This document shows, in pieces, positions 1,808 through 30,133 of a DNA stretch of 32,000 nt (positions are counted from its first letter, which is position 1; every line of letters begins with the position of its first letter). The stretch lies in assembly GCA_949502025.1 (NCBI GenBank), contig CATBCG010000073.1, forward strand, positions 44,581-76,580. The letters are read 5' to 3'. The DNA is from an uncultured Lachnospiraceae bacterium. GTDB lineage: Bacteria; Bacillota; Clostridia; Lachnospirales; Lachnospiraceae. The notes below the pieces were generated by a model. That model did not search any database. It worked only from the letters and a program-made list of their open reading frames with translations, and was not told where the DNA came from. The translations under genes were made by a program, and so were the position numbers.

Positions 1808-1837
1808 TTGTCAGACTTTGGTATCTTGTGGTATAAT
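1808..1837 (+). promoter_or_regulatory. Sigma-A-type promoter for the J-like/TPR-Hsp70 operon
   Basis: -35 TTGTCA (1808-1813), an 18-nt spacer, and TGG-TATAAT with the -10 at 1832-1837. It lies ~60 nt upstream of ATG 1896. Confidence 0.5.
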
Positions 1838-1895
1838 GTTAAAATCAGAGAGCTTGATTAAACATTGTGTAGAACATAGAAAGGAAGCAAGCGGT

Positions 1896-4800
1896 ATGGA
1901 AAAAAAGCAGATATTTCATATTCTTGAGATAGAAGAAACCAAGGACGAAGACAGCATTCGGGCGGCGTATCGGGTGCTGTTAAAAAAGACGAATCCGGAG
2001 GACGATCCGGAAGGATTTAAGCGGCTGCGCCAGGCGTATGAAGAAGCGCTCCGTTTTGCGGCACAGTCCGATGAAAAAGAGGGAGAAGAGGACGCGGGGG
2101 AAAAGGATGAGGTCGATCTGTGGATCGATCGTGTTGAAGAGCATTACCGCAATGTATATGCCAGGGGCGATATCAAAAGCTGGCAGGAACTGCTTTCTGA
2201 TCCGGTGTGCGAGGAATTGGATACTTCGATGGAAGCACGGGAAAAGATGCTGGTGTTTTTGATGGATCATGTGCAGATTCCGCATGAGGTCTGGAAGCTG
2301 TTAGACGAGGTGTTTGAGATTCGGGAGAACCGGGAGGCATTGATTCAGCAGTATCCGATCAATTTTATCGACTATGTGATCTATTATATAGAAAACGAAA
2401 CATTTATCCCTTATGATTTGTTTGAAAAGCGGGATTCTGTGGAGAAGAGATCCGATGAAGAAAAGCCGGAGGAGGAAGAGGATGACGGCGATGCCTATAT
2501 CAACGGCTACTTAAACGTCAAGCGGAAAATTGATGCCGGAGAGGCTGAGGGTGGCTCTGGCTCCGAGTGTATGCAGGAGCTAAACGATTTGGCAGCTTAT
2601 GAGGTGTACCATCCGTTTGAGGATGTAGAGCGGGTACGTCTCTATCTGGTGGCAGCAAAGGCGGGTCTGCCGGAATCCGAGAGTATGGCGCAGGTCGCAG
2701 TCCGTTTGGCAGAGGACTTGATGGAGCGCTATCCGGGTCAGTCTTATATCGAACTGTATGCCGGGGAGGCAAACTGGGAAGCAGGAGAAAAGGAAAAGGC
2801 AAAGGAAATTTGGCAGTCTATTTTAGAGCGTTATCCGGAGCATTACCAGGCAAAGTATGATATGGTGCGTTATGAAATGGGAGAAAAGCAGTACTATGAA
2901 GCCAGGGAACGGATGATGGAACTGCTGGAGATAGACGGTCAGAATGAAGAACTGATGGGCTTTTTACAGGAAGCGAACGAAGGATTGATTCCGGAATTCC
3001 GGGAAAAGCTGGCGCGCGGAGAGGAGGATCCGCATTTTCCGGGAGAGGAACTGAAATTGGAGCTGGGCTGGTGTCTGTTCCAGAACGAACGGGCAGAGGA
3101 AGCAGTGGAGATGCTGGCGGACGACGTGCCGTTAGAGGAGCAAAGCTATGGCTACTGCAATTTGTATGGGCGTCTATTGTATCAGCTTGACCGTTATGAG
3201 GAGGCAAGACCGTTTTTGGAGCGGTGGCTGGAGATGATTAGAGAGCTGGTGGATGACGGAACCGCTGAGACAAAGCGGCGGATTTCCAGACATGTCAACG
3301 CCTGCCATATTTTGAGCGATTGCTATTTTGAACTGGGGCGTCAGGAGGATGCCGAGCGGATCATTGAAGAAGGGATTGAATTTGCGCCGGGGCTACGGGA
3401 AAAGTTTGGCTGTTTACAGTATTATGCCAATATTTTATTGAAAACCAAACAGTATGAAAAAGCTGTGGATCTCTGTGACCGGATTATCAAGGAGGATGCG
3501 CAGTATTATCCGGCGTATTTAATCCGGCAGGAATGTTGCTATGAGCTGCACAAGGCGCAGGAGGTCATTGACGACTATCATCGTGCGATTGATATTTTTG
3601 CAGGCTATCATCGTCCGTATATGTTCGCGGCTGAGGTCTTTTTCCATTACAGCCAATACGAGGATGCGATGCGGGTATATAAGCAGGCGAGGGAAAACCA
3701 GGTGGAGTTTTCTCCGCGGATGAAGCTCTATGAGGTAAAAGTGCTGCGTAACCTGGCAGAGAACAAAGAGGATCGGGACAAGGCAAGAGCGATTTTAGAG
3801 GAATTAGAGGAAGCGCGCAAGCAGGAAGAATGTGATTTAGAGGATCGATCGGAAGTCGATTTTGAAAAGGGTCTGTTAGCCTGGGACGACGGAGATCTGG
3901 AAGAAGCATTGGAATACTTAAAAAAGGCGATTAAGGGAAATCCAAATCGGATGCAGTACCGGATGGTGCGCGGAAATATTTTTGCCGATCACAAGGAATA
4001 CCGTCGGGCGTTAGGAGAATACGATATTGCCGGAGAGGATTATAAAAACAGTCCGGGGCTTTACTATGGACGCGCGCTTTGTTATGAGAAGCTGAATAAT
4101 CCGGTTTTAATGGTGGAAAATTATGAAAAGACGTTGGAAATGGAAGAAACCTATGGGGATGCCTGTGAAAATCTGGCAGATTATTACCAGCGGCTGTATC
4201 AAAAGGAATATCGTCCGGAGGATTTTGAAAAGGCGATTGGTTATGCGAGCAGGCAGTTAAAGGCACGGGAAAACTGCTATTATCTCGTTCACCGCGGATT
4301 GATTTATATGAATGCGATGGAGTTGGATCAGGCGATGGCGGATTTCCATAAGGCTCTGGAATATGTGGACGACGATTGGGCAGCGTGGAACAATTTAGGA
4401 TGCTGCTACAAATACAGAGGGGAATTTGAAAAGGCGATCGAGCATTTCCAAAAGTCGGTGGATTGTATGGACGGGGCGGAAAGCGTGCTGCCGTACAGTA
4501 ATATGGCGGATTGCTACGAAGCGATGGGCGATTACCGCAAGGCGATCGAATGCTATGAGAAAGATTTGGAGATGTTTCCGAATTATCAGTCCTTTTGGGA
4601 GGAAATCGGGGATCTGTACTATTATCTGGGCGAATATGAAGAAGCCCTGACTGCGTATGAAAAAATGCGGAAAGGACCAGGGTATGACAAGGCGGTCGGC
4701 GACGTCTTTTTAAAGCAGGGAAAGAAGCGTAAGGCAATCAACGCCTACAAGGCATGGGGACATCAGAGCGGAAAGGAAAGTAACGAAGATCGGGCGGAGC

Positions 4801-5315
4801 GTTATAAAAATCTGGGGGCGCTGTATCTGGAAGAATTAAGCGATTACAACAAAGCTATGACCTGCTTTAAAAAAGCGCTTGACTTGAATTCGGATCCGTA
4901 TGAGCAGTTTGAGTATTACCGTTATCTGGCTAGATGCTGTCATATGTTAAAAAAGTTCAATCAAGCGAAGGAATATGCCAAAGCTTCCCTGGAGAGCTTT
5001 AAAAAGTCGGGCAGTGGAAAGCTAGAGGACTATCTGGCATATAAGCCATATGCTCCGGCGCGTCTGGCTTCGCTTGGCTGGCTGCTGCTTTGTCAAGGGA
5101 AAAAAGAGGAAGCCAGGGAGAATTTTCAGAAGATGGAACAGATCCAGCGCTGCCGCGGCTGCCGCTACCGGGAATGTTTTGAAAGCAGGCTTTATCTGGG
5201 GTATTATTATGAAGCGGTAGGGGACTTAAAGGAAGCAAAGGCACAGTATCAGGAGGCGTTAAAACGAAACCCGCATTGCGACGAGGCAAGAGAAGCGTTA
5301 AATAGACTGGGATAA
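1896..5315 (+). CDS. Large J-domain-like (HPD replaced by NPE) / multi-TPR repeat protein, 1139 aa
   Basis: AAGGAAG RBS at 1881-1887, then ATG 1896 (M27 of track ORF 1818-5315). The N-terminus [48 protein letters not shown] follows the J-domain helix I-III pattern. An acidic linker follows, then many 34-residue TPR-like units (e.g. [55 protein letters not shown]). [10 protein letters not shown] motif sits near the C-terminus. Confidence 0.85.
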
Positions 5316-5351: not shown

Positions 5352-7043
5352 ATGATAATAGGAATTGACCTGGGGACCACCAACAGTCTGGTAGCATATT
5401 TTACAGAGGATGGTCCGCAGATTATACCAAACCGTCTGGGGAAGAGGCTGACCCCGTCGGTAGTTAGTATGGACGAAGAGGAACAGATTTATGTGGGGGA
5501 TTCGGCAGTAGAGCGCGGATTACTGTATCCTGGGAGCGCTGCCAGCGTTTTTAAACGGGATATGGGAAGCCAGAAGAAGTTTTCCCTGCTGCACAAGACA
5601 TTTACGGCAGAGGAGCTTTCTTCCTTTGTGCTGCGGGCTTTAAAAGAGGACGCCGAGCATTACTTGGGAGAAGAGGTGACGGAAGCGGTCATCAGTGTTC
5701 CGGCTTATTTTAACGATGCCAGAAGGCGTGCCACGAAAAAAGCAGGAGAACTGGCAGGCTTAAAGGTAGAGCGGATCATCAGTGAGCCGACGGCGGCTGC
5801 GATTGCCTATGGATTGTACCAGAACCAGGAACACGCCAGATTTTTGGTCTTTGACCTGGGCGGTGGGACGTTTGACGTTTCGATTTTGGAACTGTATGAT
5901 TCGATTATGGAAGTACGTGCCGTTGCCGGGGACAATTTTTTAGGCGGCGAGGATTTTACGGCTGTATTGGAAAACATGTTTTTTGAAAAGTTTTCGCAGC
6001 TTGACCGTTTGACGTTAAACGAAAAAACACTGCGTCATATCCATAAGCAAGCCGAAGCCTGCAAGCTGGGCTTTTCCGAGGGGCGTGATTCGGCGATGCG
6101 CTGCAAGGTAGGAGAGGACTTGCTGACGATGGAGCTGGAATTGCCCAAATACGAAGAGGCTTGTGAGGAGCTGTTGGATAAAATCCGCCAGCCAGTCAAG
6201 AGAAGCTTGGCGGATGCCCATATTCGTCTGACGGATATCGACAAGGTGGTGCTGGTCGGCGGAGCGACAAAGAGCCCTGTTATACGCCGTTTTGTCAGCA
6301 AGCTCTTTAAGCGGCTTCCGGATACGAATATCAATCCGGACGAGGCGGTGGCACTGGGAGCAGCAATCCAGGGGGCGATGAAGGAGCGCAAGGATGCGAT
6401 CAAAGAAGTCATTTTGACGGACGTTTGCCCGTTTACCCTTGGTACAGAGGTAGTCAGAGAGTGGGAGCGGGGGAAATTTGAGGACGGGATGTTCTGCCCG
6501 ATTATCGACCGCAACACGATCATTCCGGCGAGCCGTACCGAACGGCTCTATACGGTACGGGACAATCAGAAGCAGATTCGTGTCAACGTCCTGCAGGGAG
6601 AAAGCCGTTTTGCTGCCAACAACCTGTCTCTTGGGGAGATTTTGATTGAAATTCCAGCCAGCCGAGCCGGAGAAGAAGCAGTGGATGTGACTTATACCTA
6701 TGATATCAATTCGATCCTGGAAGTCGAAGTGAAGGTCGTTTCTACCGGAAAGGTGACAAAGCAGGTATTCCGCGGACGGGACGTCGATATGACGGAAGAG
6801 GAGATAAAAGAGCGCTTTGAAACCTTGTCTTATTTAAAAATCCATCCGCGCGACCGGGAGGAAAATAAATACTTGCTGCTGCGTGGAGAGCGAATCTATG
6901 AGGAAAGTATGGGAGAAAAGCGTCTGATGGTAGAAGCGGCTCTGCACGAATATGAAAAGGCTTTAAACAGTTACGATTCCGCACGTATCGAAGAAGCCAA
7001 AGAGGAATTTAAGGCATTTCTGGAGGAACTGGAAGAGTTTTAG
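5352..7043 (+). CDS. Hsp70-family ATPase, short-lid HscC-like paralogue (563 aa)
   Basis: Motifs IGIDLGTTNS, DLGGGTFDVS, VLVGGATKSP and NPDEAVALGAAIQG are present. A beta-sandwich substrate domain is present (LTDVCPFTLG) with a shortened helical C-terminus. It starts 36 nt after the TPR gene, which implies one operon. Confidence 0.9.
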   Translation: MIIGIDLGTTNSLVAYFTEDGPQIIPNRLGKRLTPSVVSMDEEEQIYVGDSAVERGLLYPGSAASVFKRDMGSQKKFSLLHKTFTAEELSSFVLRALKEDAEHYLGEEVTEAVISVPAYFNDARRRATKKAGELAGLKVERIISEPTAAAIAYGLYQNQEHARFLVFDLGGGTFDVSILELYDSIMEVRAVAGDNFLGGEDFTAVLENMFFEKFSQLDRLTLNEKTLRHIHKQAEACKLGFSEGRDSAMRCKVGEDLLTMELELPKYEEACEELLDKIRQPVKRSLADAHIRLTDIDKVVLVGGATKSPVIRRFVSKLFKRLPDTNINPDEAVALGAAIQGAMKERKDAIKEVILTDVCPFTLGTEVVREWERGKFEDGMFCPIIDRNTIIPASRTERLYTVRDNQKQIRVNVLQGESRFAANNLSLGEILIEIPASRAGEEAVDVTYTYDINSILEVEVKVVSTGKVTKQVFRGRDVDMTEEEIKERFETLSYLKIHPRDREENKYLLLRGERIYEESMGEKRLMVEAALHEYEKALNSYDSARIEEAKEEFKAFLEELEEF

Positions 7044-13412: not shown

Positions 13413-13554
13413 AGCAAATTCCTCCTTTTTTTACTTGAAACTATTGTTCAGTGTATCACGTTATCCGGAAAATAGCATGGTTGATTGTGCTGATTGTAGA
13501 GAAATTTTTTGTGCAGACTGAACATAGATGGGAAGGAACTAAACGATAAGTTGT

Positions 13555-13583
13555 TTTACAGTTTAGTAAGAAAGCATTATACT
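13555..13583 (+). promoter_or_regulatory. Candidate sigma-A promoter of the HTH-FlhA(C)-like gene
   Basis: TTTACA (13555-13560), a 17-nt spacer, then TATACT (13578-13583), ~50 nt upstream of ATG 13632. Confidence 0.4.
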
Positions 13584-13631
13584 GATAAAGAAAAAACCGG
13601 TAGAAGGCCGGGAGAACAGGAGGAAGAAAAA

Positions 13632-14405
13632 ATGGAATTAACAGGATTAGGGCTACGTTTGCTGGAAGCCAGACAGGCAAAAAGGATGACACAGGAGGAA
13701 CTGGCAGTAAAGCTGGGCGTAACGGCGCAGGCGGTTTCTAAATGGGAACGTGGAGCAGGCTTGCCGGACGTGCCGTTGCTGGCTTCTGCTGCGGAGGTAT
13801 TGGAGGTATCGACGGATTATCTGTTGGGGATTACCATAGAGAACCTGTCCGAAAGCGGGAGAAGCGATGATATGGCAGAGACTATGAAGCTGATTTTAGC
13901 AGAGCCGCTAACCCTCTCTTTTGGCGTCGGGCTGCTTCCGGTAGTATCAAAAGCGAATCAGGATGGCTTCCCACAGATTCAGAAATTGCGGAAACGATAT
14001 GCCGAAGAAAAGGGCTGGCTGATACCAACGATTCGGATTCGGGATGAAATAAAGTTTGGAGAATATGAATACCGGATAATGGTCTATGAGGAAGTTGCAG
14101 AAAGCGGAACCTTATCGGAGGAAGCAGAGTTTGAAGAGCTGGTTCTGGCTTTGGAACGGGCAGTCGCTTCTCATTACGCCAGACTGTTAAATCGTCAGGT
14201 AGTAAAACGGCTTTTGGATTATGTTCGGATGTATTATCCGGCAGCCATAGACGGCATTGTTCCAGAACGGATCTCCTATCAAAAGATACAAAGAGAGTTA
14301 AGGAAACGGGTACAGGAGGGGAAATCCATTCGGAGTTTGCTGGAAATTTTGGAGGAGTTGGAGGAGTTGGAGGAGTTAGAAGAGGAAGCGAGATTAGGGG
14401 AGTAA
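13632..14405 (+). CDS. XRE-family HTH domain fused to a minimal FlhA/FHIPEP cytoplasmic-domain-like module (257 aa)
   Basis: GGAGGAAG RBS, then ATG 13632 (M42 of the track ORF). The N-terminus LRLLEARQAKRMTQEELAVKLGVTAQAVSKWERG is a classic HTH_3. The remainder (PLTLSFGVGLLPVV...QIQKLRKRYAEEKGWLIPTIRIRDEIKFGEYEYRIMVYEEVAESG ... LLNRQVVKRLLDYV...) follows the FlhA linker/SD1/SD3 consensus (LELGYGLIPLVD ... P.IRIRDN..L....Y.I...G). There are no transmembrane segments. Confidence 0.75.
   Translation: MELTGLGLRLLEARQAKRMTQEELAVKLGVTAQAVSKWERGAGLPDVPLLASAAEVLEVSTDYLLGITIENLSESGRSDDMAETMKLILAEPLTLSFGVGLLPVVSKANQDGFPQIQKLRKRYAEEKGWLIPTIRIRDEIKFGEYEYRIMVYEEVAESGTLSEEAEFEELVLALERAVASHYARLLNRQVVKRLLDYVRMYYPAAIDGIVPERISYQKIQRELRKRVQEGKSIRSLLEILEELEELEELEEEARLGE
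14351..14377 (+). repeat. Perfect 3 x 9-bp tandem repeat (GGAGGAGTT) encoding the ELEELEELE tail
   Basis: Read directly: units at 14351-14359, 14360-14368 and 14369-14377, followed by a degenerate AGAAGAGGAAG. Confidence 0.9.
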
Positions 14406-14564: not shown

Positions 14565-15829
14565 GTGGCGGAAAGCCAAAATATTGAATGGAAGGAATCA
14601 TGGCGTGACGAATATCTTAAATGGATATGCGGTTTTGCAAATGCTCAAGGTGGAAAAATATATATTGGCACAAATGATAAGGGCAACGTAATCGGAATAC
14701 AAGATAGTAAAAAACTGTTGGAAGATATTCCGAATAAAGTCCGGGATGTTCTTGGTATTCTTGTGGATGTAAATTTATTGGAAAAAGATGGGCGAGACTA
14801 TATTGAGATTTGTGTGAATGCAAATAGCTATCCAGTCAACTATAAAGGTGAATATCATTACCGGAGCGGCAGCACCAAGCAGCAGTTGAAAGGACAAGCA
14901 TTGAATCAATTCCTATTACAGAAAACGGGAATTACCTGGGATAGTGTACCGGTTCGGGATATAATTGTACAAGATTTAAGAAATGACAGTTTTGATATTT
15001 TTCGAGAACAGGCAGTCCTTAGCAAGCGAATGGACAGCTTAAAAGAGCCGCCGTTTTACTTTTCCATCATAACCCGGAAAAATGGATACCAGGAGCTTAT
15101 ATTAAGATTGGCTACTTTGAATCGGATTCTGAACTTAGGTATCAGGATGAAATACATGGTTCTCTAATAGCACAGGCGGAAAAAGTGGTTGATCTTATTT
15201 TTACCAAATATTTGAAAGCAGACATTTCTTATCATGGAGTAACAAGAGTAGAAACGTATCCATTTCCCAAAGATGCGATCAGAGAAGCTGTTTTTAATGC
15301 GATTGCACATAAATTTTATGGAGCTTTGATTCCAATTCAGATTAGCATATATGCCGATAGAATTTATATTGCAAATGATTGTATTTTTCCTGAAGATTGG
15401 ACACTTGATGATTTAATGGGAAAGCACAGGTCAAGACCTTATAATCCGTTAATTGCCAACACATTTTTTCGGGCTGGTTTTATCGAAGCATGGGGGCGAG
15501 GAATTGAGAAAATTAAGGATAGCTGTAAGGAAGCCGGAAATCCTATGCCAAAGTATACTATCAAAAGAGAAGATATTATGGTGATGTTTAAGAGCTTGGT
15601 TAGTGATACTGACCAAGCTACTAACCAAGCTAACCAAGGTAGTGACAATTCTGTAGCTGCACGTATTTTAAAGGTAATTCAAGAAGAACCAACGCTGTCA
15701 CAGAAAAAAATTGCGGATGTTATTGGAGAAAAATACAGTACAGTAAAATATTATATGGAATCTATGAAAAAATCTGGGATTATAAAGAGAGAAGGTTCCA
15801 GTCAAAAAGGGAAATGGATGGTTTTATAA
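14565..15829 (+). pseudogene. Disrupted AlbA_2 (Schlafen-like DNA-binding) + HATPase_c_4 + C-terminal wHTH 'putative transcriptional regulator/ATP-binding' gene
   Basis: Track ORFs 14565-15167 and 15185-15829 are the two halves of one family. The N-terminus is ESQNIEWKESWRDEYLKWICGFANAQGGKIYIG. The ORF2 frame is already open from 15023 and there reads QLKRAAVLLFHHNPEKWIPGAYIKIGYFESDSELRYQDEIHGSLIAQAEKVVDLIF. The tail of ORF1 (PPFYFSIITRKNGYQ...) looks like out-of-frame noise. The frame change lies within 15023-15060. Confidence 0.7.
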
Positions 15830-21520: not shown

Positions 21521-23230
21521 TTATAATTGGATACCGCCGGAAGCACTCCTGGCATATTCTTCCCGAAGCTTAAATTTCGCTACAAGGGATTTGAGCATTT
21601 CAGCCTGGCTGGAAAGCTCTTCGCTGGCAGCGGCGCTTTCCTGTGCGGTAGCAGAGGTCATCAGAACGACGCTGGAAATCTGATCGACGCCTAATGTTAC
21701 CTGCTCGATAGCGCCTGCCTGATCTTCGGCTGCGCTGGCGATCTTGTCTACCATGGAGGAAGCATTTTGTACATCACCGACTACCTTTAACAGTGATTCG
21801 GCTGTTTCTTTTGCAAGCTGTGTACCATGCGCTACGGCTTCGATCGAATTTTCAATGAGGTCAGCCGTATTTTTGGAGGCTTCAGAACTCTTGCTGGCAA
21901 GGCTGCGGACTTCGGATGCTACAACGGCAAAGCCTTTGCCTGCGGCTCCGGCGCGGGTAGCCTCTACAGCAGCGTTTAACGCCAATATGTTTGTCTGGAA
22001 TGCAATGTCGGAAATCGTTTTGATGATTTTGCTGATTTCATCCGAAGTACGGGTGATTTCTTCCATAGCGACGGTCAGCTCTTTCATCTGAGCATTACAT
22101 TTTTCTGCTTCCGTACCGGCAGTATTGGACTGATTTCTGGCGCCGGAAGCATTTTCGGCCGTTTCCTTTACCTGGCGGGAAATATCGCCGATCGTAGCGG
22201 CAAGCTCTTCTACAGAAGCAGCCTGTTCGGTAGCTCCTTGAGAAAGGGACTGCGCGCCGCCGGAAACCTGGTTAGCGCCGGAAGCAACCTGATCGGAACT
22301 TAGGTTGATCTGACCTAACGTAAAGCTTAAATCACGGTTGAGCTTCCGGATGGAAAGAAGGAGACCTTGGAATGCTCCTACATAACATTCTTCCGCTCTG
22401 GTACGTACGTCGAAATTGCCGTTTGCCATTTCTTCTAAAAGTCTGGAAGCATCCGTAATGACATTTCCCAGGATAGAAGTCATATTTTTAAAAGCGGCAG
22501 CCAGACGACCCAATTCATCCTTTGACTCGTAGGTTATTTGGATGTCAAAATCACCTTCTAAGATCTTTCCGGCTGAAACTTCCAGCTCACGTAGCGGTCT
22601 GGTGATGATGTTGGTCAGATAAGCGGAGAGAACCAGAGTAATCACCAAAGCGATACCTGCCATACCAAGCTGTGCGGCAACTAACAGGTTTTGCATTTCC
22701 TTTGTTTCCTGATAAGAGTCATCCGCATTTGCATTAGCTACGTTACTGATTTGGATTAAAGCGTCTACCGACTCCGTAATCAATGGTTGGTATTCATTTA
22801 ACAGCATCTCCTGGGCGGCTTTCATATCCGTGGCAGTAAGACCAATAATCGTAGCTTGCATTTCCACTGCCTTTGTGATGCTTTCGGAAAAGTTTTCCAA
22901 CATTTCCGGATTGCCCTGGAAATGCGAGAATACCCAGTTTCCATTTTCTTGTAAAAGCTCTAGCTCCTTTTCCATATCAGCCTGATATTCTGCACATTTT
23001 GCACTGTCCTCCTGAATAGTTATCAAACCGAGATCCTTGACAATGATCTGCAAGCCGCGGCGCATGTTCATGATTCGGTTTGTAACCTGATACCCGACGT
23101 TGTAAAAGTCCGAGTAGCTGTCTGAATTTCGCTGTAATCCGATGATAGCTACCGTGACAGTTGCACAAAACAGCACGATAATCGTCATAAAGGTTACAAG
23201 CAGTTTGATTCTGATTCTCAGGTTTTTCAT
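21521..23230 (-). CDS. Methyl-accepting chemotaxis protein (helical sensor domain + HAMP + MA signalling domain)
   Basis: I prefer the start at ATG 23230 (MKNLRIRIKLLVTFMTIIV), with a GGAGGA RBS. TM1 is followed by a ~190-aa ligand domain, TM2, HAMP (RPLRELEVSAGKILEGDFD), and the conserved hairpin (AFQTNILALNAAVEAARAG-like). Confidence 0.9.
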   Translation of the reverse strand: MKNLRIRIKLLVTFMTIIVLFCATVTVAIIGLQRNSDSYSDFYNVGYQVTNRIMNMRRGLQIIVKDLGLITIQEDSAKCAEYQADMEKELELLQENGNWVFSHFQGNPEMLENFSESITKAVEMQATIIGLTATDMKAAQEMLLNEYQPLITESVDALIQISNVANANADDSYQETKEMQNLLVAAQLGMAGIALVITLVLSAYLTNIITRPLRELEVSAGKILEGDFDIQITYESKDELGRLAAAFKNMTSILGNVITDASRLLEEMANGNFDVRTRAEECYVGAFQGLLLSIRKLNRDLSFTLGQINLSSDQVASGANQVSGGAQSLSQGATEQAASVEELAATIGDISRQVKETAENASGARNQSNTAGTEAEKCNAQMKELTVAMEEITRTSDEISKIIKTISDIAFQTNILALNAAVEATRAGAAGKGFAVVASEVRSLASKSSEASKNTADLIENSIEAVAHGTQLAKETAESLLKVVGDVQNASSMVDKIASAAEDQAGAIEQVTLGVDQISSVVLMTSATAQESAAASEELSSQAEMLKSLVAKFKLREEYARSASGGIQL

Positions 23231-23315
23231 TTCAGTCCTCCTTGTTTTGTGATTAGGAAACGATCTTGTACCCTCCTGGCAGGTACGTAAATCGTTCGTA
23301 AAGTATACAAGGATC

Positions 23316-23344
23316 ATTATAGCTTCTTTTACCGAATTTGTCTA
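23316..23344 (-). promoter_or_regulatory. Candidate sigma-A promoter of the MCP gene
   Basis: Read on the minus strand: TAGACA (23339-23344), a 17-nt spacer, then TATAAT (23316-23321). It lies inside the 5' extension of the track ORF, which supports the shorter CDS. Confidence 0.45.
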
Positions 23345-23405: not shown

Positions 23406-23984
23406 TTATAAATTCAGATTCAGAAAAATCTTATCCTTATCATCTTGTTCAATTCCTAAATACCGTTTGGTAATCTGGAAGGACGAATGATTGAACAGGA
23501 CGGTTAATACGGTGGCGTTGGCTCCGTTAGCCCATGCCTGATAGCCGAATGTTTTGCGAAGAGAATGACAACTGATATGTTCGGAAAGGTGCAGGGCGAA
23601 GCAGGCATGTTTGATGATACGAAATGCCTGAGAACGGCTTAGAGGGGTTCCGAATTTTCTTCCGGTAAAAATGTAGTCCTGTGGACGGGCTCTTGGTACG
23701 CTGGTCAAATAGAGGGAAAGCGCTTGCTGTACGCTTTGGTTGATGGCGATACAGGTTTCTTTTCCGGTTTTTTGCTCCAACAGGATAATATGCCTGCGAA
23801 ATTTCCCTCTGGTAAACTGATAGGTATCCTCCCAACGAAGCGAAAGCAAATCGCCGACCCTTAAAGCCGTGTTGAGTCCGGTGTTGATCAAGGCGTAGTT
23901 ACGTAAATTCCGTTCCTGATATAAATAGTAGTTCTTTAGTGCTTCCAGATCGTTTTTGTCTTTAATCGGGTGTGTTGTCCCCAT
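23406..23984 (-). CDS. Tyrosine recombinase/site-specific integrase, catalytic domain only (192 aa)
   Basis: AGGAGGAA RBS. Candidate catalytic residues are R in TALRVGDLLSL, HSLRKTFG (H-x-x-R), NHSS, and the Y in TKRYLG. There is no N-terminal SAM-like core-binding domain. Confidence 0.85.
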   Translation of the reverse strand: MGTTHPIKDKNDLEALKNYYLYQERNLRNYALINTGLNTALRVGDLLSLRWEDTYQFTRGKFRRHIILLEQKTGKETCIAINQSVQQALSLYLTSVPRARPQDYIFTGRKFGTPLSRSQAFRIIKHACFALHLSEHISCHSLRKTFGYQAWANGANATVLTVLFNHSSFQITKRYLGIEQDDKDKIFLNLNL

Positions 23985-25730: not shown

Positions 25731-25756
25731 TAAGTCAGAAGGAAAAGATCCGATAT
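25731..25756 (+). promoter_or_regulatory. Sigma-28 (SigD/FliA)-type promoter
   Basis: TAAG (25731-25734), exactly 15 nt, then CCGATAT (25750-25756). The Bacillus SigD consensus is TAAA-N15-GCCGATAT. It is intergenic and lies ~180 nt upstream of ATG 25938. Confidence 0.55.
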
Positions 25757-25867
25757 ATATTCCATAGGAACGGATGCCTTATACGATGCACAAAAACAGT
25801 AGCTAAGCGGTACTGCAGGTATCTTCACAGCCAGAGAACGGATTCGGCGGATGTTGGAGTGACGTAG

Positions 25868-25937: not shown

Positions 25938-27161
25938 ATGGTAATTCAGTCAAGTAATGTAGCGATGGGATCTTCTAGGAGCTGGCGGGCAACGACTACG
26001 GCTTCGGTATCGGTATCTAGTTGGGGAATGGTACAAAATTCGGTAGGCGCCGGGAAGATAAGCCCCCTGCCTTCTGCGACAGACAGCGGGCAGGATGTAA
26101 AGACGCCAGAGGACAGCCAGAAAAAGCGACAGGAGCTGATGGAGGGCTTACAGGCAGGAAATCCGTTTTTTAGTCGTATACAAGAAGGCGATTCTTATGC
26201 CGATCAGCTAAGCGATGCTGGGAAAGTAGAGTTTTATTCCTTTCGGAATATGTTAGAGCTTCTTTTTGGCGTAGATGGACGAAGCCATAAAATGACGCCG
26301 ATTGAGCTGTTTCGCCGCCTGATGGGACAGCAGCGGGAGCGGATTTCCAGGATGTTGGCAGCTACAGAGAGCGGAGTTTCCGGTGTGCAGGCGTGGAGCG
26401 GGAATCAGACGTCCGGTGGGACGATAGTATCGGGCGGAGCCGCGCCTTCCGGTGGGATGGTCTCTGCCGGAATCGGAAGACTGTATACAGAAGTGGAAGT
26501 ACGGGAAAACTTCCGGTATGAGGAAGAGGAGAATACCACGTTTTATTCCTCAGGTACGGTACAGACGGCGGACGGTAAAAAAATTCGCTTTGATGTAAAT
26601 GCCTGGATGTCAAGAAGCTTTGTAGAGGAAACGTCGTTTCAGTTTAATTACCAGAGGGCAAATTATGTCGATCCGCTCGTGATTAGCTTAGACAGCGACA
26701 ATGTACGGATCAGCAGCCAGGAGTTTTATTTTGACTTAGACTGTGACGGGGAATTAGATAATGTGTCTTTGCTTGCCGGAAACAGCGCATTTTTAGCTCT
26801 GGATCGGAATGGAGACGGGAAAATCAACGACGGAAGCGAATTGTTCGGGACGAAAAGCGGCGATGGGTTTGCGGATTTAGCGGTGTTTGATCTGGACGGG
26901 AACGGCTGGATCGACGAAAACGACGAAATTTTTAACCGGCTTCGGATCTGGAAAAAGGACGAGAACGGAAACGATCAGTTAATCGGGCTGGGAGTAGCCG
27001 GGATTGGGGCTATTTACCTGGGCAGCAGCCAGACGTTGTTTCACCTTGACCCGGACGGAGACGGCGAAACAGACGCCCGGATTACCCGCTCCGGCTTTTA
27101 CTTAAAAGAGGACGGAGGGGCTGGTCTGGTTCAAAATTTGGATATGGTAAAAAAGAATTAA
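25938..27161 (+). CDS. Hypothetical protein with C-terminal DxDxDG (EF-hand-like) Ca-binding repeat module; no signal peptide (407 aa)
   Basis: The N-terminus MVIQSSNVAMGSSRSWRATTTASVSVSS is polar and Ser/Thr-rich. The C-terminal half carries DLDCDGELD, DRNGDGKINDGSELFG, DLDGNGWIDENDEIFNRLRIW.D.NG and DPDGDGETD. Confidence 0.75.
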   Translation: MVIQSSNVAMGSSRSWRATTTASVSVSSWGMVQNSVGAGKISPLPSATDSGQDVKTPEDSQKKRQELMEGLQAGNPFFSRIQEGDSYADQLSDAGKVEFYSFRNMLELLFGVDGRSHKMTPIELFRRLMGQQRERISRMLAATESGVSGVQAWSGNQTSGGTIVSGGAAPSGGMVSAGIGRLYTEVEVRENFRYEEEENTTFYSSGTVQTADGKKIRFDVNAWMSRSFVEETSFQFNYQRANYVDPLVISLDSDNVRISSQEFYFDLDCDGELDNVSLLAGNSAFLALDRNGDGKINDGSELFGTKSGDGFADLAVFDLDGNGWIDENDEIFNRLRIWKKDENGNDQLIGLGVAGIGAIYLGSSQTLFHLDPDGDGETDARITRSGFYLKEDGGAGLVQNLDMVKKN

Positions 27162-27370
27162 GAATTGTCTGCAAAAAATCCTTTGAATTTTCCGCCGTTT
27201 AGTATATAATGGATACGTGGTATGTCAAATGAGGGATTTATACGCTGCTGTCCTCTGAATGGAAAGCGGCGTTTCAAAGCATCTCAGCTTGCGGAAAGGG
27301 ACGTTTTCAGAGTGGCCGTTCGCAGGGATAGATAAACGTATTGAGTGGAAAAGAAGAAAGGAGTAGCAGG

Positions 27371-28360
27371 ATGTTAGGAAGTGATATTGGTATTGATTTG
27401 GGGACGGCGAGCGTTCTGGTGTATATGAAAGGAAAGGGCGTCGTATTAAAGGAGCCGTCCGTAGTGGCTTTTGACCGTGATTCCGGCAAGATTAAGGCGA
27501 TCGGGGAGGAAGCCCGGCTGATGTTAGGAAGGACGCCGGGCAATATCGTAGCAGTGCGTCCGCTGCGCCAGGGCGTGATTTCCGATTATACGGTGACAGA
27601 AAAAATGATGAAATATTTTATCCAGAAGGCAGGCGGCAGGCAGCGCTTCCGTAAGCCTCGGATCAGTGTCTGCGTACCGAGCGGTGTGACCGAAGTAGAA
27701 AAAAAGGCTGTAGAGGACGCGACTTATCAGGCGGGAGCCAGAGAGGTAGCGATCATCGAAGAGCCGATTGCAGCGGCAATCGGGGCGGGGATCGATATTT
27801 CCAGACCATGCGGCAATATGATCGTCGATATCGGAGGCGGTACGACAGATATCGCAGTGATTTCCCTTGGCGGTACGGTAGTCAGTACGTCGATTAAAAT
27901 TGCCGGAGACGATTTTGACGAAGCGATTGTTCGTTATATGAGAAAGAAACATAATCTGCTGATCGGTGAAAGAACCGCAGAGGAGATCAAGATCAAGATT
28001 GGATCCGCCTACAAGCGACCGGAAGTAGAGACCTTTGACGTAAGAGGGCGAAACCTGGTGACAGGTCTGCCAAAGACGATTACCGTCAGCTCCGAGGAGA
28101 CCGAGGAGGCGTTAAAGGAAGCTACTTCTCAGGTGGTAGAGGCAGTTCACAGCGTATTGGAGAAAACGCCGCCGGAATTGGCTGCCGATATCGCAGACCG
28201 CGGTATCGTGCTGACCGGAGGGGGAAGTCTGCTCTATGGATTAGAGGAGCTGATTGAAGAGAAGACCGGAATCAATACGATGACCGCTGAAGATCCGATG
28301 ACCGCCGTAGCGATTGGGACAGGGAAGTTTGTAGAATTTTTAAGCGGAAAAAGAGATTAG
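27371..28360 (+). CDS. mbl: MreB/Mbl actin-like rod-shape protein
   Basis: AAGGAG sits 7 nt before ATG 27371. Motifs are IGIDLGTASVLVY, DIGGGTTDIAV and GIVLTGGGSLL. Its position directly upstream of two rod genes mirrors B. subtilis mbl-flhO-flhP. Confidence 0.85.
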   Translation: MLGSDIGIDLGTASVLVYMKGKGVVLKEPSVVAFDRDSGKIKAIGEEARLMLGRTPGNIVAVRPLRQGVISDYTVTEKMMKYFIQKAGGRQRFRKPRISVCVPSGVTEVEKKAVEDATYQAGAREVAIIEEPIAAAIGAGIDISRPCGNMIVDIGGGTTDIAVISLGGTVVSTSIKIAGDDFDEAIVRYMRKKHNLLIGERTAEEIKIKIGSAYKRPEVETFDVRGRNLVTGLPKTITVSSEETEEALKEATSQVVEAVHSVLEKTPPELAADIADRGIVLTGGGSLLYGLEELIEEKTGINTMTAEDPMTAVAIGTGKFVEFLSGKRD

Positions 28361-28384
28361 CAAGAGAAAAGGGGCAGATAATTC

Positions 28385-29161
28385 ATGGTAAGGACGTTAT
28401 ATACGGCATATACCGGCATGAAAAATGAGCAGTATCGACTGGACATTATATCCAATAACCTGGCAAATGTATCGACGGCAGGCTATAAGGAAGAAAGCGT
28501 GGCAAACCAGTCGTTTGACGATGTAATGGCGATTAAAATCCGCGACGTATCGGAAGCCTGGGCAGATCGCCCTATCGGGCAGATGAGCCTGGGAGTAAAG
28601 ATAGGAGAAGTCTATACCGATTATAAGCAGGGCTCCGTAAGGGAGACCGGCAATACCTTTCATCTGGCGCTGGAGGGCAAAGGCTTTTTTGCGCTCCGCG
28701 TGGTAAACCAGAACGGGGAGGAGTCTATTAAGTATACACGAGACGGAAATTTCAAGATGACGAACGAGGGACTGATCGTAGATGCCTATGGAAACAACCT
28801 CCAGAGCGAATCCGGGAACTTACAGATTCCGACCGAGGCGACCGAGGTCAGCATCAGCCCGGACGGGACAGTGAGAGCAGACGGCGTAGTAATAGACAAC
28901 ATTGTGGTTCGGGATTTTGAGGACTACGACTACCTGAATAAGTACGGCGACAATATGTATGAGACGATCGAAGGAGCAGAGGAGCGCGAGACGTCCGCGT
29001 TGATTATGCAGGGCTTTATCGAGCAGTCCAACGTCAATTCAGTACGAGAGATGGTAGAGATGATCAATATTACCAGAGCTTATGAGGCGAACCAGAAGGT
29101 TATCCAGACTACCGACAGTATGCTAGAGCAAGTGACTACTTCGGTTGGACGGGTAGGATAA
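28385..29161 (+). CDS. flhO: Flagellar basal-body rod protein (FlgF/FlhO-like)
   Basis: The N-terminus YTAYTGMKNEQYRLDIISNNLANVSTAGYK is the Flg_bb_rod motif. The C-terminus GFIEQSNVNSVREMVEMINITRAYEANQKVI is the Flg_bbr_C motif. Confidence 0.85.
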   Translation: MVRTLYTAYTGMKNEQYRLDIISNNLANVSTAGYKEESVANQSFDDVMAIKIRDVSEAWADRPIGQMSLGVKIGEVYTDYKQGSVRETGNTFHLALEGKGFFALRVVNQNGEESIKYTRDGNFKMTNEGLIVDAYGNNLQSESGNLQIPTEATEVSISPDGTVRADGVVIDNIVVRDFEDYDYLNKYGDNMYETIEGAEERETSALIMQGFIEQSNVNSVREMVEMINITRAYEANQKVIQTTDSMLEQVTTSVGRVG

Positions 29162-29248
29162 TAGAGGCTGCAAAAGGCAGCAGAGAAACAAAATAAATAA
29201 TAAGCCATGCAACGGGTTTGTTGCAGAAAAATCAGGAGGCATAATACG

Positions 29249-30133
29249 ATGATGAGATCGTTATGGACGGCATCTTCCGGTATGCTGTCACAACAGACTA
29301 ATCTGGATACGATTGCGCACAATCTGTCCAATATCAATACCGTTGGTTATAAAAAGGAAACGGCAGAATTTAAGTCTCTGCTTTACCAGACCATCAAGGA
29401 GGCTTCTACAGACAGTGAGGGGAATCCGAAGGCAACTGCGATTCAGGTAGGTTCCGGCGTGCGGAATTCGGCAATTACTTCTGTTTTTGTTCAGGGACCA
29501 CTGACTGCTTCGGACGGACCGTTTGATTTGGGTATCCAGGGCAACGGCTTTTTTATGGTACGAGATACGGCAGGAGAGACTGCATATACAAGAAGCGGCT
29601 CCTTTCAGGCTGCGATGACCACAGAGGGAAACGTCATTTTGGCAACCTCAGACGGGAATCCGGTGCTGAACAGTCAGGGCGGAGAGATTATTTTATGGCA
29701 GCGTCAGGGGACGGACGGCGGCGCGGGCAATACCGGCGACGCCCAGACAAATTCGACCCAGAACTGGAGTGTGGACGATATCATCGTTGACGAGTCCGGT
29801 CAGGTACTGCGAGAAGTACGGGGTGAAACGACGGTTTCGTATGATTTATTAGGAAGAATCGGTGTGGCACAGTTTAACAATCCATCCGGACTGATCAAGG
29901 CGGGCGGCAGTTTGTTGTATGAGTCGGATGCTTCAGGAGCCGCGAGGATAGAAGGTCAGGATACCGGATTAAAGAACAGTGTCGTAAAACAAGGCTATCT
30001 GGAAGCCTCCAACGTACAGGCGGTAGACGAAATGGTCAATATGATCGTGGCGCAGAGAGCCTACGAACTGAATTCCAAGATTATTACGGCTTCCGATGAA
30101 ATGCTGCAGCAAGCAAATAATCTAAGACGTTAA
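29249..30133 (+). CDS. flgG: Flagellar distal rod protein FlgG/FlhP-like
   Basis: AGGAGG (29234-29239), then ATG 29249 (MMRSLWTASSGMLSQQTNLDTIAHNLSNINTVGYKK). The C-terminus is GYLEASNVQAVDEMVNMIVAQRAYELNSKII. I prefer this start to the track's 29207. Confidence 0.85.
   Translation: MMRSLWTASSGMLSQQTNLDTIAHNLSNINTVGYKKETAEFKSLLYQTIKEASTDSEGNPKATAIQVGSGVRNSAITSVFVQGPLTASDGPFDLGIQGNGFFMVRDTAGETAYTRSGSFQAAMTTEGNVILATSDGNPVLNSQGGEIILWQRQGTDGGAGNTGDAQTNSTQNWSVDDIIVDESGQVLREVRGETTVSYDLLGRIGVAQFNNPSGLIKAGGSLLYESDASGAARIEGQDTGLKNSVVKQGYLEASNVQAVDEMVNMIVAQRAYELNSKIITASDEMLQQANNLRR

Follow-up and report, generated by a model that had tools for sequence, protein, structure and literature searches.

A stand-alone XRE-type helix-turn-helix protein from Lachnospiraceae with a C-terminal module homologous to the ring core of FlhA

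The DNA considered here, called the window throughout, is a stretch of 32,000 nucleotides from an uncultured Lachnospiraceae bacterium (assembly GCA_949502025.1, contig CATBCG010000073.1, positions 44,581 to 76,580 of the forward strand). On its plus strand, an open reading frame (ORF) that starts with ATG at 13632 and stops with TAA at 14403-14405 encodes, as an initial annotation of the sequence had claimed, a 257-aa protein, in which an XRE-type helix-turn-helix (HTH) domain is joined to part of the cytoplasmic domain (FlhA-C) of the flagellar export gate protein FlhA. The identical 257-aa protein is called in two NCBI metagenome-assembled genomes (MAGs; GCA_022793945.1 and GCA_948534805.1). 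The gene stands alone as a monocistronic unit with its own promoter-like site, and its neighbours encode methionyl-tRNA synthetase, an esterase, an AlbA_2-type protein and a PadR regulator. Comparison with one 80%-identical relative yielded a ratio of nonsynonymous to synonymous substitution rates (dN/dS) of 0.096 for the whole gene at a dS of 1.15, with values of 0.04 for the HTH part and of 0.105 and 0.195 for the FlhA subdomains D1 and D3 delimited below, indicating a functional gene under strong purifying selection in both halves. Status as a pseudogene or remnant was ruled out on this dN/dS (0.10) and on the size and conservation of the family.

Pfam places HTH_3 (PF01381) at residues 11-64 (E=1.5e-14; 54.2 bits against a cut-off of 23), in agreement with the canonical HTH_3 N-terminus that had been proposed. 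FHIPEP (PF00771) is matched in two stretches (E=1.6e-23; 83.5 bits against a gathering cut-off of 29.1) that span only profile positions ~334-416 and 457-537, the latter corresponding to residues 170-250. At the domain level the protein belongs to the XRE HTH_3 superfamily and also carries a PF00771-homologous domain. The scores for the FlhA equivalog TIGR01398 (84.7 bits, cut-off 772.1) and for SctV (TIGR01399; 30.2 bits, cut-off 692) both lie below threshold, and the former indicates that the protein is a homologue of part of FlhA and not FlhA itself. Among structures in the PDB, the best sequence match for the FlhA part is Bacillus subtilis FlhA-C (3MIX, E=9.4e-17; chain residues 38-116 pair with query 82-158, and 181-254 with 177-250). 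FlhA-C of Salmonella, Vibrio and H. pylori come next, and the HTH part matches ImmR-like, P22 C2, 434 and SinR HTH domains.

An AlphaFold2 (AF2) monomer model built from a 53-sequence family alignment has a mean predicted local distance difference test (pLDDT) score of 92.8, and its five HTH helices (residues 6-16, 21-28, 32-39, 47-57 and 61-64) are all modelled at pLDDT >90; within this part, Q21, T31, Q33, A34, S36, W38 and E39 are invariant across the family alignment. A Foldseek comparison of the model with the PDB returned FlhA-C or SctV-C as all of the best 50 matches, with E=5.8e-11 for 3MIX and a root-mean-square deviation of 3.6 Å over 209 columns for 3A5I_A. Profile, sequence and predicted structure thus uphold the homology to the FlhA/FHIPEP cytoplasmic domain on which the initial annotation had been based, and the motifs it had listed (GYxLIP-like, IRIRD, GRQ..LLD-like and IR..LEILE) are genuine homologous positions.

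In FlhA, the cytoplasmic part is divided into a linker (328-361) and the subdomains D1 (362-434 and 484-503), D2 (435-483), D3 (504-583) and D4 (584-682) (Terahara et al., PMC5916509). We used the cytoplasmic domain of E. coli K-12 FlhA, whose numbering is the same as that of Salmonella, as the reference for the assignments collected in Table 1. Residues 78-88 of the window protein are in register with the Firmicute FlhA motif 'EIRRPE-NVxSLL-xVDPI', and the first segment of D1 retains equivalents of G368 (G98), R391 (R120), G399 (G128), L401 (L130), P403 (P132) and D409 (D138). The 49-aa D2 is replaced by five residues, at the exact position where some relatives (Type III, below) retain a partial D2. 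The D3 part is modelled with helices at 188-201, 203-206, 216-228 and 236-256, and its equivalents of L512, D514, P529, I557 and E559 are conserved in the family. Since the protein ends at about FlhA residue 575, within D3, it has no D4. The protein therefore lacks D2 and D4 as well as the membrane domain and the first, N-terminal half of the linker; the loss of D2 and of the entire membrane domain had been recognised before, and the alignment adds D4 and the linker half to the list.

Table 1. Coordinates of the gene, its upstream elements and its encoded subdomains in the window.
Feature	Position	Strand	Basis or reading
Conserved non-coding block, 68 nt, between divergent esterase and regulator	13468..13535	.	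candidate operator/promoter element
Inverted repeat ACTAAAC-N16-GTTTAGT over the -35 hexamer	13538..13567	+	candidate autoregulatory operator
Sigma-70-type promoter-like site TTTACA-17-TATACT	13555..13583	+	10/12 matches; consensus match only
Ribosome-binding site AGGAGG	13618..13623	+	8 nt 5' of ATG; read from sequence
Coding sequence, XRE-HTH / FlhA-core fusion	13632..14405 (incl. stop codon)	+	profile, PDB and model matches
XRE/Cro-C1-type HTH_3 DNA-binding domain, residues 1-66	13632..13829	+	Pfam, AF2, conservation
Flexible inter-domain linker, residues 67-77	13830..13862	+	lowest pLDDT (~60); variable in family
FlhA_L-C ('knob') helix, residues 78-88 = E. coli 348-358	13863..13895	+	alignment; AF2 helix 78-88
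D1 first segment, residues 89-161 = E. coli 359-434	13896..14114	+	alignments
D2 excision scar SEEAE, residues 162-166	14115..14129	+	alignment
D1 second segment, residues 167-185 = E. coli 484-503	14130..14186	+	alignment; T490 position = L172
D3, residues 186-257 = E. coli 504 to ~575; acidic helical tail EELEELEELEEE	14187..14402	+	Pfam, 3MIX, AF2

The window protein belongs to a large and uncharacterised family. A word-indexed search of 5.8 billion proteins gave at least 544 matches, nearly all of 240-300 aa and with both PF00771 and PF01381, and an exhaustive HMMER profile search against 1.84 billion cluster representatives yielded 162 proteins at E<=1e-30, of which ~100 are single-stretch full-length members; at 50% identity the family comprises ~100 clusters. 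Those members that have a name in their source database are called 'FHIPEP family type III secretion protein', 'helix-turn-helix domain-containing protein' or 'flagellar biosynthesis component FlhA'. A full-text literature search found no description of an HTH-FHIPEP fusion, and the earlier statement that there is no characterised example stands to that extent. Among the matches listed, every named carrier belongs to the Lachnospiraceae or Lachnospirales: Butyrivibrio sp. MC2013, Roseburia (including R. hominis), Acetatifactor, Lachnobacterium, Lachnoclostridium, Candidatus Epulonipiscium, 'Lachnospiraceae bacterium' and Defluviitaleaceae. Roseburia (including R. hominis), Butyrivibrio and Epulonipiscium have flagellated members. 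None of the named matches listed comes from Blautia, Anaerostipes or Mediterraneibacter, which are heavily sequenced non-motile genera.

Four architectures can be distinguished. Type I (P0355, 461 aa; loci L094/L095) joins the HTH to a complete FlhA-C with linker-C (the C-terminal part of the FlhA linker), D1, D2, D3 and D4; Type II (P0354, and P0221/P0318 from Defluviitaleaceae) has kept D4 and lost D2; Type III (P0158, P0160, P0164, P0166 and others; 305-335 aa; Lachnospiraceae) has kept a partial D2 and lost D4; and Type IV, which includes the window protein, has D1 and D3 only. With ~170 of the 221 module-bearing proteins collected, Type IV is far more common than the other forms, and it is also the most reduced. 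In a neighbour-joining tree of 157 shared core columns with 100 bootstraps, Types III and IV form one clade (91%) in which the D2-retaining forms are basal, and Types I and II pair up (72%), with short branches that lie among genuine Firmicute FlhAs. The bootstraps are split over the origin of the fusions, with all of them in one clan in 41% and Types I/II with their nearest FlhAs in 44%. Identity of the core to genuine FlhA reaches 72% in Types I/II and is ~29% in the window protein, compared with 61% among FlhAs themselves; within the family the modules are ~33% identical. The architectures represent a stepwise reduction of FlhA-C, from D1-D4 through loss of D2 and/or D4 to D1 and D3. Stand-alone soluble FlhA-C proteins (FHIPEP only, 300-530 aa) were considered as well and set aside, being mostly contig-end fragments or frameshifted calls of genuine FlhA; P0464, for example, still has a transmembrane helix and P0450 a garbled stretch.

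Further variation on the fusion was seen in individual members. Between the HTH and the FlhA linker, P0354 (residues ~70-115) and P0355 (~75-120) have an extra helical insert of ~45 residues ('...IAERLKSKGMRVKDIAEVTGLSVEKIM...') that looks like a second small HTH-like element, and P0008 (320 aa, from an NCBI MAG) has two tandem XRE HTH domains before its D1+D3 module. One abundant species (the cluster of P0051) carries two alleles: the full-length P0272 (251 aa, 197 contigs) and P0271, listed in 391 blocks, with a clean ~457-bp deletion (L003:10494-10950 compared with L092:4494-4520) that removes the latter half of D1, the whole of D3 and the intergenic sequence 3' of the gene and leaves a 172-aa HTH plus half-D1. 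The deletion allele amounts to a knockout of the FlhA-like module that exists in nature.

Chaperone-substrate complexes use FlhA-C as their docking platform (PMC5916509, PMC5932034) and bind there in a hydrophobic dimple between D1 and D2 to which D456, F459 and T490 contribute (PMC5916509). In Salmonella, either I440A or F459A, both in D2, destabilises the ternary chaperone-substrate-FlhA complexes and strongly reduces motility (PMC5932034). The initial annotation had drawn on this function and proposed that the docking module reads out free chaperones or substrates. In the alignment to E. coli FlhA, however, I440, D456 and F459 fall within the deleted D2 and have no counterparts in the window protein, and the position of T490 is not conserved in 74 non-redundant family members, over which all residue-conservation counts given here were taken; E, D or N is most often found at this site. 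Chaperone read-out is therefore left without its binding site in the window protein, and binding of export chaperones in the manner of FlhA, of which the protein would appear incapable, is not supported. We accordingly hold it to be very improbable that the regulator senses the pool of free chaperones or late substrates by docking FliS-flagellin, FliT-FliD and FlgN-FlgKL on its FlhA module: FlhA-C does dock such complexes, and D2 of the rare Type I/III relatives has a D/E-P-x-[WYIL] motif at the D456-F459 position, such that chaperone binding could hold for these relatives or for an ancestor, but the deletion of D2 extends to the whole dominant Type IV family, and a single substitution in D2 suffices to destabilise the ternary complexes in Salmonella. 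Flagellar assembly may yet be coupled to transcription through an interface other than the dimple.

What the protein has kept of FlhA, namely linker-C, D1 and D3, is what builds the nonameric ring. The FlhA/MxiA ring is built by D1-D3 and D3-D3 contacts, and linker-C binds D1/D3 of the neighbouring subunit, where its knob (E351, W354, D356) enters a pocket formed by R388/R391/K392/K393, F400/L401 and L512 with E508/Q511/R515 (PMC5916509). The inter-subunit salt bridge R391-E351 (PMC5916509) is essential for ring formation, FliJ binding and FlgN-FlgK binding, and R391A abolishes ring formation (2026 preprint, bioRxiv 10.64898/2026.05.20.726703). D1, D3 and linker-C, with the linker-C segment in register across every fusion type, are the sole part of FlhA common to all four architectures, D2 and D4 being dispensable. 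The window protein has these ring-core features, namely D1, D3, the linker-C helix and the pocket positions, which are occupied by W129 and L130 (F400/L401) and L194 (L512) in addition to R120. Across the family, the R391 equivalent is invariant (74/74), as is that of D409 (74/74), and the equivalents of G399 (73/74) and P403 (72/74) are nearly so; the L401 position is L in 58/74 and the L512 position L, M or I in 70/74. The knob position W354 is I, L or V in 65/74 members and is preceded by E or D in 37/74. The best-supported reading of these patterns is that the module serves as a protein-protein association domain acting through the FlhA inter-subunit interface.

The region upstream of the gene contains two candidate regulatory elements. 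The conserved non-coding block is 91% identical to that of the relative L090, against only 62% for the gene's third codon positions (dS 1.15), and features a direct repeat, TGATTGT-N2-TGATTGT (9 bp apart), at 13482-13497 that is unique in the window. The inverted repeat is likewise unique in the window (0.05 expected by chance); its right arm and the -35 hexamer are conserved in L090/L091, and its left arm with one mismatch. Neither of these two repeat motifs has a further copy in the window, including near its flagellar genes, and no Rfam family was matched at gathering score anywhere in the window, hence none for the conserved block. The 68-nt conserved block and the inverted repeat over the -35 hexamer together make autoregulation plausible.

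XRE HTH proteins as a rule depend on an oligomerisation or sensor domain at their C-terminus, as exemplified by SinR, the 434 and lambda repressors and the RRNPP regulators. In line with this, we propose a mechanism in which the N-terminal HTH_3 domain would bind DNA and the FlhA-derived module (linker-C, D1 and D3) would supply self-association as its primary role, with the hydrophobic/acidic linker knob of one subunit predicted to fit the pocket formed by the R391 and L401 (D1) and L512 (D3) equivalents of another. Self-association would give the oligomeric state required for operator binding, probably including binding to the regulator's own promoter region, and docking on native FlhA or FliJ could be a secondary use of this interface. 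To a stand-alone XRE regulator of this kind, with an exapted minimal FlhA core that self-associates through the FlhA inter-subunit interface into a DNA-binding-competent oligomer and that probably regulates its own gene, we give about an even chance.

Several observations weigh against this proposal. The knob position of the window protein is T84, which is not hydrophobic, with E83 and D79/D80 nearby. R391, G399, P403 and D409 are also conserved in genuine FlhAs, and their retention could in part reflect a folding constraint; with only ~29% identity to FlhAs and ~33% within the family, the interface may moreover have been remodelled. A head-to-tail interface like that of FlhA predicts rings or filaments, unlike the symmetric dimers that HTH_3 repressors typically form. 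Furthermore, no palindrome shared upstream of the family genes was found in 27 non-redundant upstream regions of diverged sequence, in which a search for dyads (exact half-sites of 5-7 nt, spacers of 0-30) detected no more than in shuffled controls, and direct repeats phased at 10-11 or 20-22 bp upstream of family genes were not enriched.

The same conserved residues bear on a second explanation, the main rival, in which the protein mimics an FlhA subunit in soluble form and acts as a docking sensor of the export gate, binding native FlhA (at the free linker or the D1/D3 face) or partners of FlhA that use this face, such as FliJ or the C-terminal part of FliK. The regulator would then be sequestered or released by the number or the switching state of export gates, which would couple transcription to flagellar assembly. 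The R391 and L401 equivalents are those that FlhA uses for linker-C and FliJ, and the FlhA-C of Types I and II is close to genuine FlhA, with D2 and D4 both kept in Type I; modules so near to the native state would almost certainly still recognise flagellar partners, which suggests that the original selective value of the fusion was flagellar. The restriction of the named carriers to Lachnospirales, several of them flagellated, and the lack of Blautia, Anaerostipes and Mediterraneibacter among the named matches listed point in the same direction, as does the genome of the window itself. It includes FlgF/FlgG-type rod genes at 28.4-30.1 kb, which the initial annotation had placed at 28.4-30.5 kb, in a run of MreB/Mbl followed by two rod genes (27341-30133, plus strand) that presumably represents the same arrangement as mbl-flhO-flhP in B. 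subtilis, as well as a gene for a methyl-accepting chemotaxis protein (MCP; 21521-23317, minus strand). Rod genes and MCP together suggest that the host is motile.

The wider gene context does not favour such a docking function. Flagellar genes adjoin the family gene in none of ~30 examined loci, which cover Types I to IV and thus also the near-native forms, and neighbourhoods vary between genera; the divergent esterase is found beside the gene in the closest relative only. A scan of the flanks for MCP, FlgF/G, FlhA transmembrane domain, FlhB, CheR and CheB was positive for 2/26 family loci and 0/57 control loci, counts too sparse to separate the two groups. In addition, the low identity of the Type IV module to FlhAs implies that the module does not follow a conserved partner surface in its entirety, and no copy of the candidate operator motifs lies near the flagellar genes of the window. 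Taken together, we regard both a docking sensor of the export gate and its regulation by gate number or switching state as somewhat unlikely. A more specific version, which we also judge unlikely, is that of an export-gate 'pseudo-subunit' that docks on, or is titrated by, the FlhA ring, the free linker or FliJ/FliK, with DNA binding reporting the number of gates or the switch to filament-type export. If true, it would constitute a new kind of flagellar assembly checkpoint in gut Lachnospiraceae, the source of the dominant immunogenic flagellins, and the Type I relatives with their complete, near-native FlhA-C would be its ancestral, chaperone-competent version.

The non-flagellar and variable neighbourhoods would also be expected of a third kind of protein, a sensor unrelated to the flagellum in which the FlhA fold has been fully repurposed for a ligand or another partner and any oligomerisation proceeds through a new surface; its homology to FlhA would then be uninformative about what it does today. 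The fast evolution of the module (~33% identity within the family) fits this explanation; Y182, N187, K192 and Y216, which are invariant in the family and have no counterpart in FlhA, suggest a new functional site; and the common natural deletion allele indicates that the module is dispensable in some strains. Against it stand the retention in register of the inter-subunit residues and of the linker-C helix, a taxonomic range that matches lineages in which flagella are common, and the fact that no pocket or ligand is suggested by any of the data. We consider full repurposing improbable, and return to the self-associating regulator as our preferred interpretation.

Among characterised systems, FlhA/SctV (3MIX, 3A5I) shares homology with residues 78-257, which correspond by sequence as well as by fold to its linker-C, D1 and D3, and the glycine of GYxLI is retained along with the equivalents of R391, G399, L401, P403, D409, D514, P529, I557 and E559. 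FlhA, however, has a membrane domain of ~330 aa with eight transmembrane helices and the FHIPEP cytoplasmic loop, as well as the D2 dimple, D4 and the FliJ-binding N-terminal half of the linker, none of which is present in the window protein; FlhA/SctV lies in a flagellar or injectisome gene cluster, typically as flhB-flhA, whereas the window gene lies outside any; and the DNA-binding domain fused to the FlhA part has no counterpart in FlhA. With the membrane domain, the D1-D4 set, the equivalog score and the gene context all lacking, the window protein therefore does not belong, functionally, to the FlhA/SctV family. In its overall plan of a five-helix HTH_3, a flexible linker and a separate C-terminal domain, it resembles SinR, the phage 434 and P22 C2 repressors, PlcR/Rgg, PuuR and BzdR, and like such XRE regulators its gene is solitary with a candidate autoregulatory operator. 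Unlike the known partners of XRE domains (TPR, cupin, peptidase S24 and the SinR-type helical hook), its C-terminal domain is a piece of a gate protein from type III secretion. The closest comparison within the family is with the Type I-III fusions, which share the HTH_3, linker-C, D1 and D3 backbone and are all uncharacterised as well; they bear the annotation 'FHIPEP family type III secretion protein'. To FlgM-sigma28, FliT-FlhDC, CsrA-FliW-Hag, IpgC-MxiE, SicA-InvF and ExsACDE there is a likeness only in the logic that the initial annotation had proposed, and none of these secretion-coupled checkpoints uses a copy of the export gate as its sensing domain.

What is new here is a family of XRE regulators, uncharacterised and mis-annotated, that carry an exapted ring core of FlhA. 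The regulation of flagellar genes in Lachnospiraceae (Roseburia, Butyrivibrio, Lachnospira and relatives) is, to our knowledge, essentially uncharted, and Lachnospiraceae flagellins are major TLR5 and adaptive-immune antigens of the gut. This conserved transcription-factor-like family is an evident candidate for a missing regulator in these bacteria, and mutants of R120 and of the linker, together with the frequent natural deletion allele, offer testable handles. Flagella aside, the family exemplifies domain exaptation, in which a piece of a membrane-bound secretion machine is reused as the effector of a soluble DNA-binding protein, and its reduction series indicates which parts of FlhA-C make up a self-sufficient unit of folding and interaction. 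The labels 'FHIPEP family type III secretion protein' and 'flagellar biosynthesis component FlhA' are misleading and can inflate counts of genes for flagella or type III secretion systems in metagenomic surveys.

Identity as a phage repressor or anti-phage defence protein (PADLOC RmrA/CapH, PHROGs repressors) was rejected, the matches being confined to HTH residues ~3-88 and the neighbours being housekeeping genes. An exception among the PHROGs matches is phrog_12657 (unknown function, profile length 579), which aligns to residues 81-153 in D1 (E=7.9e-14) and might be either FlhA-like or an artefact of prophage boundaries within PHROGs. A 192-aa ORF at 23406-23984 (minus strand) contains only the catalytic domain of a phage-type integrase, of which it is probably what remains after truncation. 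The unrelated loci L003/L004 and L092/L093 also have an integrase, there of full length, 3.4 kb upstream of the family gene.

Elsewhere in the window, the sigma-28 promoter noted earlier at 25.7 kb corresponds to a SigD-like site, TAAG-N15-CCGATAT, at ~25731-25757, which is a consensus match only. It is located ~180 nt 5' of the gene for a 407-aa protein (25938-27161, plus strand) that has no Pfam or NCBIfam match and contains several calcium-binding-like DxDGDG / DxNGDG repeats in its C-terminal half. Directly downstream of the fusion gene, the adjacent plus-strand ORFs 14565-15167 (SLFN_AlbA_2) and 15185-15829 (HATPase_c_4 and HTH_24) look like one gene split by a frameshift or stop; the gene call at 14565-15829 is missing in one of the two source assemblies, and the second ORF has weak PADLOC matches of the Argonaute-associated (pAgo) and CARF/Csa3 types through its winged HTH region. 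Finally, a 1165-aa TPR-rich protein (1818-5315, plus strand), to which a precomputed Pfam annotation of the source contig assigns a DjlB_C_2nd domain, adjoins an Hsp70/MreB-like gene (5352-7043), suggesting a DnaJ-like/Hsp70 partner pair.

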